A stretch of 29,762 nt of DNA from the NCBI GenBank assembly GCA_046597055.1, contig JBKJLC010000029.1, positions 1 through 29,762 of the forward strand. Direction: 5' to 3'. Position numbers and translations under genes: made by a program. This stretch comes from Kofleriaceae bacterium (GTDB lineage: Bacteria; Myxococcota_A; Polyangia; Haliangiales; Haliangiaceae). Position 1 is the first letter of the stretch. The number at the start of each line of letters is the position of its first letter. This document shows positions 7,047 to 15,407 of this stretch, piece by piece. Below the pieces are notes generated by a model that made no database searches, had not been told where the DNA came from, and saw only the letters and a list, made by a program, of their open reading frames with translations.

Positions 7047-7680
7047 GTCGATCGCAGAGCAGCTCACCATGTGGGTCGGCGAGGAGGATAGCCTCGCTGG
7101 CTGGCTCGTGCTCGCGGGCGTGGCGACGATCGAGTACGTGTTCCCGCCATTCCCGGGCGACTTCGTCACGGTGCTCGGCGCGGTCATGGTCACCGCTGCG
7201 TCGTGGTCGTGGCTCGGCGTGCTGTCGGCGTTGATGGTCGGCTCCGCCGTCGGCGCCGCCCTGGTGTTCGAGCTCGGTCGCCGCTGGGGCCGCCGGCGGG
7301 CCGCGCGCACCGGCACGGAGGCGGCGCTGCTCGATCGCCTGGTCCAGCGGTTCGAGCGCCATGGCGCTGCGTATCTCGTGCTCAACCGGTTCGTGCCCGG
7401 CGTCCGCTCGCTGTTCTTCGTCGCCGCCGGGCTGGCCGGGATGCGCCGGGGCCCGGTCTACCTCTACGCGATGTTGTCGGCGCTCCTGTGGAACCTGAGC
7501 CTGATGGCCGTCGGCGCCGCGCTGGGCGCGAACCTCGACCGGCTCGAGCGCCTGATGGCGACCTACACCATCGCGTGCTCGGTCGTGCTCGCGCTGGTGG
7601 TCGGGGGGGTGATCACCGTGACGCTGTGGCGGAAGCGCCGGGCGCGGCAGGCGGCCGACGCGTCCACGCCCGGTCAGTGA
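7045..7680 (+). CDS. DedA family membrane protein
   Basis: IEYVFPPFPGD, GAALVFELGRRWG and LNRFVPGVRS...AAG motifs; hydrophobic segments. Confidence 0.92.
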   Translation: MSIAEQLTMWVGEEDSLAGWLVLAGVATIEYVFPPFPGDFVTVLGAVMVTAASWSWLGVLSALMVGSAVGAALVFELGRRWGRRRAARTGTEAALLDRLVQRFERHGAAYLVLNRFVPGVRSLFFVAAGLAGMRRGPVYLYAMLSALLWNLSLMAVGAALGANLDRLERLMATYTIACSVVLALVVGGVITVTLWRKRRARQAADASTPGQ

Positions 7681-7967
7681 ACCTGGCGCTCGTCGTCCGG
7701 CAGGTCGCTGACCTCGATGGTCCCGAACCGCTCCTCGAAGCGCTCCAGATTCTTCTGAAGCGCGAGCAGGAGCCGCTTGGTGTGCCGGGGCGACGAGATC
7801 ACGCGCGAACGGACCTTGGCGCGCGGCGAGCCCGGCTGCAGGAACGCGAAGTCGAGCACGAACTCGTTCTCCGTGTGGTTGATGACCACCAGGTTCGCGT
7901 AGGTGCCCTGGGCAAGGTCGTCATCGATCTGCACCTGGATCTTCGGACCTGGTGGTTCGTCGGCCAT
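7674..7967 (-). CDS. DUF3467 family protein
   Basis: IQVQIDDDLAQGTYANLVVINHTENEFVLDF...RVISSPRHTKRLLLALQKNLERFEERFG is characteristic of the family. Confidence 0.9.
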   Translation of the reverse strand: MADEPPGPKIQVQIDDDLAQGTYANLVVINHTENEFVLDFAFLQPGSPRAKVRSRVISSPRHTKRLLLALQKNLERFEERFGTIEVSDLPDDERQVH

Positions 7968-8181
7968 GACGCGGAGGGTAGCCCAGCCGAGCAAGGATCT
8001 CGGCGGGCGAGGCCCGGCGAGGACGGTTTGTCCCCCTGGGGACTCGCGGTTCTTGGTGAGGTGGCCGGACCCCGGGCCTTACGCCTGCGAGCGGCCGGTC
8101 GGCGCCGCCCCGGGGTCGGTCGAGCGCCACGTGCGGGCCGAAAAAGCAAACGGCGTGCGGACCGGGGAGGCACGCACGCCG

Positions 8182-8222
8182 AAAAGAAAAAGGGCGCTGC
8201 ACTGGGGGGACCATGCAGCGCC
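8182..8222 (-). terminator. Intrinsic terminator (minus strand)
   Basis: Perfect 9-bp stem GGCGCTGCA/TGCAGCGCC (8193-8201 with 8214-8222), followed on the minus strand by CTTTTTCTTTT. Confidence 0.85.
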
Positions 8223-8467
8223 TGCGCAGATCGCGACGAGATACTTGTTGCCTCAGGTGGGAGGGGGGATGCCGACAGGGATGAGGGGAGGGAGACCAGC
8301 CGGCGCCACCGAGTCGAAACTTTCTCTAGTCACGAACGCGCGTGTGAAATGTTGGGGGGGCTTGGGGGGGGCTGCCGTGAAACCGGCAGCGTGCGATGAA
8401 GATTCCGGGAAGGAGCGTGTGGGGGAGAGACTGAGTCAGCGGCTGCGTGGTTGCTCGCCGCCGATGA
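8182..8467 (-). ncRNA. Candidate sigma54-dependent small RNA with multiple C-rich tracts
   Basis: Bounded by a sigma54 promoter and an intrinsic terminator, with no credible ORF between them. Hairpins at 8437-8463, 8371-8390, 8271-8304 and 8193-8222. The 5' end is estimated from promoter geometry. Confidence 0.55.
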
Positions 8468-8477
8468 CCGGAACTAG

Positions 8478-8494
8478 AGCAACAGGTGTTCCAA
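8478..8494 (-). promoter_or_regulatory. sigma54 (-24/-12) promoter
   Basis: Minus strand TTGGAACACCTGTTGCT has GG-N10-GC spacing and a consensus TTGCT -12 box, with one mismatch to TGGCAC. Confidence 0.7.
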
Positions 8495-8833
8495 CTCGGA
8501 CCGAGATCTCTCCCGATGAGCGTTCGCACCCTTACGGCCCCTCCCGGTTCGAGGTTGTCACCCCGTGTCACCACCCGTTGACGAAGTGGCTAGCTGAGTG
8601 GTCACGCGGTGCGCCAACCCCGCGGAGCTGGTGGCTACTCGACTAGCCGCGTGGCTCCTCGATGAGCCTGGGTCTCTGAATCCCAATGAAGTTCGCCGTG
8701 GTTGGGTGTGTGCCCTCGTGCCCACGGTCGTGCGCGGTGCGCCGTCGCGGCGCGACGCACGTTGCGTCTGGCAGCGGTCGAAGCAATGCGTGCTCGCACG
8801 CGCGGCTGGCTGTCGCGTGCTACGGAAGCGCTC

Positions 8834-9262
8834 GTGCGTGCGCTCGGGCTCGATGTTGGAAGCAAGACGATCGGTGTCGCCGTGTCCGACGAGCTCGGCA
8901 TGGCCGCTCATCCCGAGCGCGTGATCGCCCGCCGCGGAACCACGGCCGACGTCGCCGAGGTGCTCACCATCCTCGTCGCCAAGGCGGCCGCCGCGGTCGT
9001 GGTGGGAATGCCATTCGAGCTGTCGGGCGCGATCGGTCCGCGCGCGCGCCGGGTCCGCGTCTTCGTCGAAGCGCTGCGCGCCGCCCTCCCGGCCGGCGTG
9101 GAATTACACGAGCAGGACGAGCGTTTCTCGACCGCCGAGGCCCAGCGCGTGCTGCTCGCTGGCGACGTCTCGCGGGCCCGCCGCAAGGAAGTGATCGACA
9201 AGCAGGCGGCCGCCATCATCTTGCAGGGCTGGCTCGACGCGCGACCAAACGCCATCGGCTAG
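8834..9262 (+). CDS. ruvX: Holliday junction resolvase-like / pre-16S rRNA nuclease RuvX (YqgF)
   Basis: RALGLDVGSKTIGVAVSD, VVGMP, QDERFST and IDKQAAAIILQGWLD motifs; lies upstream of mltG. Confidence 0.96.
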   Translation: MRALGLDVGSKTIGVAVSDELGMAAHPERVIARRGTTADVAEVLTILVAKAAAAVVVGMPFELSGAIGPRARRVRVFVEALRAALPAGVELHEQDERFSTAEAQRVLLAGDVSRARRKEVIDKQAAAIILQGWLDARPNAIG

Positions 9263-9336
9263 AGTCGCTCGACCCGTGGTCGGCCGGCCGCACCACGTCA
9301 CCCGGACACCTCGGTCACTTCGCTCCAGGCCCAACG

Positions 9337-10455
<1,119 letters not shown>

Positions 10456-10538: not shown

Positions 10539-12580
<2,042 letters not shown>

Positions 12581-12581
<1 letters not shown>

Positions 12582-12792
12582 TGGACCCACAGGGACGCGG
12601 GACGGTGGCGGTGGAGCTCAACGCGACGCTCGCGGAGCTCCTGGTTCGGCTGTGCGCCGAGCAGGGGACCGAGGACTACCTCGGCGTCATCTCGCGGGCC
12701 CTGGGCCTGTTCGATCTCGCGCAGCAGACGCGCCGGCAGGGCGGTCGGCTGTGCTTCGTCAACGAACGCGGCGAGGCCGCCGAGGTGGTGTT

Positions 12793-12796
<4 letters not shown>
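12581..12796 (+). CDS. 71-aa hypothetical protein, possibly ribbon-helix-helix-like
   Basis: [14 protein letters not shown]...EAAEVVF. Its ATG overlaps the prkA stop (TGATG) and its stop overlaps the yeaH TTG start (TTGA), so it exactly fills the gap. Confidence 0.75.

Positions 12797-15407
<2,611 letters not shown>

Follow-up and report, generated by a model that had tools for sequence, protein, structure and literature searches.

Organisation of the locus and fold of the RNA

The window analysed here, a stretch of 29,762 nt, carries a compact transcription unit on its minus strand, in the gap between a DUF3467 gene and the divergent ruvX/yqgF and mltG genes (Table 1). In this genome, mltG is followed by prkA, DUF444 and spoVR (10539-15407), whereas in genus g8 (L016, L017) prkA lies downstream of the RNA on the RNA's own strand, directly so in L016. 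The first-pass annotation had proposed a free-standing regulatory RNA of ~285 nt in this gap, with a sigma54-type promoter, several short hairpins and six C-rich tracts, acting as a multi-seed RNA or as a protein sponge and possibly a functional counterpart of Pxr. We found a real, single-copy, conserved and structured non-coding RNA gene of the Kofleriaceae, larger than that annotation saw, with a covarying fold, its own promoter and terminator, a cassette that occurs in both orientations and no reading frame.

Table 1. Features of the RNA gene, its surroundings and its 3'-UTR relatives (window coordinates unless a locus is named)
Feature	Position	Strand	Remarks
Distal palindrome, TGGCNA-N6-TNGCCA type	8632..8649	minus	putative sigma54 enhancer-binding protein site
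Proximal palindrome, TGGCNA-N6-TNGCCA type	8587..8604	minus	second of two putative sites at the promoter
Second conserved upstream element, GTCA-N8-TGAC, GTGACA core	8567..8582	minus	GTGACA in 44/65 upstream regions
Sigma54-type -24/-12 promoter	8478..8494	minus	predicted +1 near 8467
Variable 5' leader	8355..8467	minus	hairpins 8463-8437 and 8390-8371; C-tracts 1-3; words GCAACC, GGAAU and GGUU recur
Conserved RNA core	8354-8183	minus	3' ~170 nt of the unit; covariance model match
Conserved long hairpin (118 nt)	8224..8341	minus	covariation in MAFFT and model-fitted alignments
Basal helix	8341-8323 with 8241-8224	minus	part of long hairpin
Middle helix	8313-8306 with 8260-8252	minus	part of long hairpin
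Apical helix	8304-8299 with 8276-8271	minus	part of long hairpin
Internal loop, 5' strand (NAA then UUUCGA)	8314..8324	minus	near-invariant in homologues
Internal loop, 3' strand (GCAAC..AGUA)	8242..8251	minus	near-invariant in homologues
Apical C-rich loop, tract 4, with CCUCC and CUCAU	8281..8295	minus	conserved; unpaired 1.0
C-rich 3' bulge, tract 5	8261..8270	minus	CCCC in 48/52 homologues
Intrinsic terminator with C-rich loop, tract 6	8182..8222	minus	8/9 pairs co-vary
DUF3467 gene (PF11950)	7674..7967	minus	downstream of RNA
ruvX/yqgF and mltG, then prkA, DUF444, spoVR	8834..10455 (ruvX-mltG)	plus	divergent from RNA
Compact 3'-UTR relative	L255:1370-1555 (G021); L257 (G034)		behind sigma54-type promoter

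Folding supported the proposed orientation. The minus strand of segment 8467-8182 folds at -96.8 kcal/mol (z -3.67, with none of 200 shuffles as good), whereas the plus strand of the same segment shows no fold excess over its shuffles (z +0.12). The 9-bp terminator was found in its given place, 8222-8214 pairing with 8201-8193 ahead of a U-tract at 8191-8182; a simple terminator scan returned nothing there, probably because of the bulge and the long loop. The six C-tracts were likewise present as placed and are all predicted to be mostly unpaired (0.72-1.0). The density of C/T-tracts alone is unremarkable in this genome, as 22 other 300-nt windows score equal or higher. Many intergenic pyrimidine microsatellites of hexamer type were also seen on contigs C53, C148, C73 and others. 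The terminator is followed by another hairpin (8178-8142, minus), which likewise has a C-rich loop and a U-tract, and the hairpins downstream of the terminator vary among homologues.

The conserved part of the unit is its 3' portion, in which a basal helix, internal loop, middle helix, C-rich 3' bulge, apical helix and C-rich loop are followed by the terminator. The hairpin first noticed at 8304-8271 is real, yet it is merely the tip of a conserved 118-nt hairpin that had been missed. Covariation among aligned relatives bore out this fold: in a MAFFT alignment, 16 of 39 predicted pairs carried double changes and 95.2% of cells paired, a result matched by 0 of 500 shuffles, while slid controls paired in 27-47%. 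In an alignment of 52 sequences that was fitted to the covariance model, and that consequently leans towards it, 28 of the 39 pairs co-varied.

Letter conservation is strongest in the internal loop and the basal helix rather than in the C-rich seeds, an uncommon pattern for a simple antisense RNA. No part of the core is better conserved than the internal loop, which is invariant in 52 of 52 sequences, 33 of which had been chosen by the internal-loop pattern itself. Among 13 low-scoring loci fetched without that pattern (20, minus 5 duplicates and 2 more divergent loci missed by the regular expression), the 5' word was kept in 12 and the exact 3' word in 7, the remainder showing one change each. 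The pair flanking the 3' strand was G-C in 36, G-U in 2, C-G in 2 and A-C in 12 of the 52 sequences. Within the loop AGUA faces NAA, where N is G in 30, C in 18 and A in 4 of the same sequences. In the loop-E/sarcin-ricin motif, AGUA lies opposite GAA and forms non-canonical pairs; the predicted arrangement here may resemble it.

Overall, stems change with compensation while the unpaired C-tracts stay constant. The apical loop carries CCUCC in 61, CUCAU in 64 and CCCC in all 65 homologues, and the terminator loop holds CCCC in 49 of 52 homologues, as against 5 of 361 terminator-like hairpins in this genome (this terminator included). The lengths of the C-runs shift between species. In 3 of 65 homologues, a 12-nt word of the terminator loop recurs in the first loop of Pxr, whose sequence was deduced from the published primer and probe. 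An internal switch, in which CCUCA of the loop would pair with UGAGG of the middle helix, was rejected, since g8 and g11 have kept the loop but not this pairing.

No conserved reading frame was found. The spacing within the core takes values of 61-74 nt, covering all three frames, and each frame is open in at most 36 of 65 loci, so that a translated small ORF does not explain the unit, overlapping shadow ORFs notwithstanding. A small protein gene, a Y RNA and a non-functional repeat are readings already largely refuted, and we give them next to no credence. A Y RNA would fit the Ro60 gene of this genome, but Ro60 was not found in g8 (0/3) or g11 (0/1), both carriers of the RNA, and it is present in g16 (4/4) and in genome G029, where the RNA was not found; nor does the RNA adjoin rsr. 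A repeat is at odds with the single copy per genome.

Promoter, leader and orientation of the cassette

The -24/-12 promoter stands where it had been placed. Its pattern, TGG-N9-TGCT, occurs in all 65 homologous loci, 94-358 nt ahead of the core anchor, against 5.5% of random 520-nt windows. The genome contains rpoN, and no sigma70-like site was detected within 7900-8900. Upstream lie activator-type palindromes which, like the long covarying helix and the near-invariant internal loop, had escaped the first pass. With a pattern derived from those same 65 loci, a palindrome was found ahead of 47 of the 65 homologous promoters and in 1.0% of random windows. Its distances cluster near 112, 123, 134, 145 and 156 nt, in steps of ~11 nt. 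Such phasing would be as for an enhancer-binding protein, and the palindromes are, judging from sequence, likely sites of a protein of the sigma54 enhancer-binding class.

Elsewhere in this genome, the palindrome stands beside 10 of 527 intergenic sigma54-like sites (by estimate, ~2x chance) and, by weight matrix, before 4 of 125 promoter genes versus 8 of 2082 others. Genes preceded by both the palindrome and a sigma54-like site lie on contigs C77, C108, C198, C179, C278, C129, C15 and C124; by eye, most of their products have exported-looking N-termini, and the domains noted among them are DUF6748, beta-propeller and P-domain. A domain scan of five such genes returned two DUF6748 proteins, and the ORF on C129 is reminiscent of a thiol-activated cytolysin. 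These genes could form a regulon, which we treat as a lead only. Seven other genes with this promoter arrangement had no similar hairpin in their 3' UTRs.

The leader, which contains the two other hairpins first noticed, varies in length from 43 to 296 nt (18 loci) and in most homologues is not rich in C. An AAC/GGU(U) word pair recurs in the leader of 43 of 65 loci, and CCCC is found there in 15 of 26 ruvX-divergent loci and in 3 of 38 ruvX-facing ones. The whole unit measures 210-471 nt across loci, which does away with a fixed length of ~285 nt; the conserved unit is ~170 nt. The idea of a multi-seed RNA survives in part: the promoter, the core stems and C-tracts 4-6 are conserved, but tracts 1-3 lie in the variable leader and are not, leaving three conserved tracts rather than six seeds.

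Promoter, leader, core and terminator invert as a block, 38 of the 65 loci facing ruvX, 26 facing away from it and 1 being assigned to neither. Downstream of the 26 averted units lie DUF3467 (7), prkA (3) or other genes (16). Since the cassette has the opposite orientation in 38 of 65 loci, the RNA is a free-standing gene, as first claimed, and not a leader; its inversion together with the changing downstream genes argues for action in trans. A cis-acting leader of the downstream gene, either riboswitch or attenuator, is very unlikely. It would account for the structured, conserved core and for the ruvX-facing loci, in 30 of which (of 38) the RNA ends 5-50 nt ahead of ruvX. However, the averted loci and their diverse downstream genes contradict it, and the RNA lacks the fixed orientation before functionally related genes that a leader would show. 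Moreover, the sequences of the terminator stems differ freely, opening the 3' arm of the terminator within the core costs a median of 18.5 kcal/mol (63 loci), and a fold test of the core, leader excluded, gave no antiterminator.

Distribution and divergent forms

A search of 147 genomes of the order with the covariance model R1, derived from 16 sequences, gave a match in 102, a tally that includes two unpublished genomes (G088 and G089), with one copy each and all in one family: this genome, 12/16 in g1, 82/91 in g14, 3/3 in g15, 1/1 in g11 and 3/3 in g8. These counts include related genomes and are not independent. R1 matched no genome from 12 further genera of the family and none of 9 belonging to other families, and neither blastn nor the covariance model revealed a paralogue in this genome. 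In a DNA search of 61 genomes, the 3' core turned up in 14 of the 16 from the same genus and in 4 from 3 other genera. R1 missed 13 genomes of g1 and g14. In two of these the RNA was split across contig ends; of 10 misses tested for ruvX, 9 had no ruvX match and one had ruvX cut at a contig end. In G029 ruvX abuts the DUF3467 gene, a true absence of the RNA. Almost all of a large soil clade, most of it uncultured, has the RNA.

A pattern scan of named genomes listed at least 120 stretches; of the 80 examined, 33 matched R1, labelled Kofleriaceae (16), Haliangiales (2), Myxococcales (8), Deltaproteobacteria (6) and Proteobacteria (1); from these labels we infer that the family is Kofleriaceae. 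The broader model R2 found nothing outside the family among 151 genomes of the class, and R3 gave no credible match outside it among 151 genomes of the phylum, only matches of 23-27 bits, in searches of sampled genomes under strict filters, which did overlook distant members described further on. Weak R3 matches (21-27 bits) off the syntenic locus (L256, L262, L264-L268) were rejected as terminator-level matches.

A small share of the RNA's words occurred in 24 sequencing runs, 21 of them recorded as RNA. Contigs of relatives in 4 runs from 4 studies cover 8190-8348, 8236-8359, 8241-8349 (with 2-5 differences) and 8242-8324. These contigs, which are unstranded and possibly contain DNA, weakly support transcription of the core in relatives. 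They do not cover the leader or the promoter, a gap that carries no weight either way.

A long hairpin with a central bubble, present in single copy almost throughout a clade, recalls 6S RNA, and the RNA might bind RNA polymerase, perhaps the sigma54 holoenzyme. We consider this very unlikely: a separate full-length 6S match, at 46 bits (cut-off 46.4), lies at C260:56316-56492, RF00013 finds nothing at the RNA locus, the hairpin spans just ~118 nt, and no mimic of a -24/-12 element is visible in the alignment.

The locus also has distant forms. A divergent member in G019 (L261:1501-1672, minus) stands alone ~2 kb from ruvX, behind a sigma54-type promoter of its own; its internal loop is partly preserved, its terminator loop is C-rich and 19 nt long, and it scores 19.8 bits (E 8e-4) with filters off. 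In G021 and G034 the gene behind the ruvX-divergent promoter encodes a lipoprotein-like product of ~560 aa with weak matches to CUB and Kazal domains. The 3' UTR of this gene contains a hairpin that shares the basal letters and has C-rich loops, together with an almost identical terminator. G024, alone among 147 genomes, carries behind a sigma54-type promoter two tandem ~120-nt hairpins of the same outline in the ruvX-DUF3467 gap (L183:697-980), each with CCCUCCCC in its apical loop and in its 3' bulge; the covariance models did not match them. The relatives in G024, G021 and G034 keep the hairpin outline and the C-rich loops and have lost the internal loop; synteny, outline and short words suggest their homology. 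Stand-alone, inverted, tandem and 3'-UTR forms at one locus offer a natural series for the origin of an sRNA gene.

Possible modes of action and known systems

Our working interpretation, held with modest confidence, is that the RNA is an Hfq-independent anti-Shine-Dalgarno (anti-SD) sRNA acting in trans through its three single-stranded C-rich segments. The sigma54 promoter would be activated by an enhancer-binding protein that occupies the upstream palindromes, and the variable leader might be trimmed away to leave the ~170-nt core. The long helix would serve as a scaffold that keeps the C-rich loops open, a protein or nuclease would have its site in the near-invariant internal loop, and the three strands would pair with G-rich SD regions of other mRNAs, blocking translation without Hfq.

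Anti-SD pairing is favoured because CCUCC is kept in 61 of 65 homologues, because C-rich unpaired strands appear to be selected, and because there are precedents. The conserved unpaired loops complement SD words of this genome: GGAGG, the complement of the apical CCUCC, peaks right before starts (439 versus 73-137 per other 20-nt bin), with start positions resting on the simple caller used (6408 genes). No Hfq, ProQ or CsrA was found in this 94% complete genome, in which positive controls matched. The assembly contains no 16S rRNA and hence no anti-SD tail sequence for comparison.

Target prediction by duplex energy over 6187 genes is barely enriched at starts and gives no clear signal. Strong duplexes of the apical loop numbered 146 at starts versus 124 upstream and 132 in antisense controls; the corresponding counts were 188, 125 and 121 for the bulge and 150, 131 and 156 for the terminator loop, and longer seeds gave 19 at starts against 18 and 16 in controls.

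SD-like words were found for 1724 of the 6187 genes, a leaderless-like -10 box near the start for 1203, and both for 75. About one fifth of called genes thus have a -10-like box just ahead of the start, where SD words are rare (75/1203), which suggests many leaderless mRNAs. The idea that the CUCAU loop reads starts of leaderless mRNAs was dropped for now: its best site (contig C104) is kept in 1 of 10 orthologues, and a second candidate target, an ECF-sigma site, in 0 of 5.

Alternatively, the RNA could be a sponge or scaffold, its internal loop and C-rich strands titrating or organising a KH-domain protein, Rho or a nuclease, a reading we find less likely. The sequence invariance resides in the irregular helix, and an invariant module points to a protein partner. 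The repeated display of CCCUCCCC, doubled in G024, the two KhpA/B-family genes of this genome and the lack of a conserved mRNA target (by duplex-energy prediction, with two sites checked in orthologues) would also agree with it. Conversely, the relatives in G024, G021 and G034 do without the internal loop, the C-rich loops fit SD words, no partner protein emerged as co-occurring, and CsrA was not found.

A broader hypothesis, which we regard as doubtful, would join both ideas in a two-module riboregulator: the irregular helix would recruit a protein standing in for Hfq, the three anti-SD strands would repress SD-led mRNAs as a class, and the sigma54 signal would shift translation to leaderless mRNAs. 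Its origin would lie in the 3' UTR of a lipoprotein mRNA under sigma54 control, and two genomes would still show that stage. As an anti-SD sRNA that also carries an invariant structured module, in a host without detected Hfq, ProQ or CsrA, the RNA would make chaperone-free sRNA action testable.

The first-pass annotation had recognised no known family, and Rfam offers none: a search of the window at gathering scores was empty, one of 8100-8600 at E up to 10 gave three chance-level matches without Pxr (RF01812), and eight related loci gave no credible match. The literature searched, which named the clade, DUF3467 or MXAN_RS24205 and left most subscription journals outside, described the RNA nowhere. 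The myxobacterial sRNAs encountered in that literature (Pxr, MXnc1 and an M. xanthus survey) all come from Myxococcus and close kin. This structured RNA family of the Kofleriaceae behind a sigma54-type promoter is apparently undescribed so far, and adds a well-covarying family with a promoter and enhancer-type sites beyond Myxococcus.

Pxr of M. xanthus, which is processed to a short form and blocks development, is similar in being a myxobacterial sRNA with a predicted sigma54 promoter and an upstream enhancer region, a C-run in a functional hairpin loop and an Hfq-less host (PMC5684412, PMC5568312, PMC10217877). It differs in its three-hairpin model of 109 positions, against a nested hairpin in a 170-nt core here, in its locus directly behind the pxrK-pxrR sigma54 two-component genes, against ruvX-DUF3467 here, and in a host from another class of the phylum. 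The Pxr model was unmatched in this genome and in the 151 phylum genomes, but controls were equally unmatched. MXnc1 is also an sRNA from a myxobacterial intergenic region and pairs with many mRNAs close to their SD sequences; in M. xanthus, which lacks Hfq, contacts near SD sequences are described for both Pxr and MXnc1 (10.1101/2025.09.11.675593). Homology to MXnc1, compared by description, is unlikely, given that R3 had no credible match outside the family.

Several unpaired C-rich loops are also described for 6C of Actinobacteria, RsaE and RNAIII of Staphylococcus and sX13 of Xanthomonas; chaperone-independent mRNA pairing is reported for 6C (PMC6486639) and for RsaE with its UCCC motif (PMC2790875). 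These RNAs use adjacent short hairpins, whereas here one long irregular helix carries a near-invariant internal loop. Cuckoo RNAs of Alphaproteobacteria share modular anti-SD loops on variable stems and repeatable modules as in G024 (PMC4615179), but their loop word is CCUCCUCCC rather than CCCUCCCC, the fold here is nested, and the phylum is another. The RNA showed no match at gathering score to the 6C, RsaE, sX13 or cuckoo families (sX13, 16.2 of 50 bits). It does display a conserved unpaired C-rich motif on variable stems, as the anti-SD class does, and most likely resembles the C-rich anti-SD sRNAs in working mode while belonging to none of their families. Enterobacterial GlnZ, from the 3' UTR of glnA, parallels the G021 and G034 forms as an sRNA in the 3' UTR of an mRNA controlled by an enhancer protein; its sequence is unrelated, and most members here are stand-alone genes.

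In G270, from another family of the phylum, an unrelated-looking unit of ~210 nt (L266:1318-1555) combines a sigma54-type promoter, a C-rich 5' strand, and a hairpin and terminator with C-rich loops, with no Rfam match. The design of a sigma54 promoter and an RNA with C-rich loops may recur across myxobacteria.
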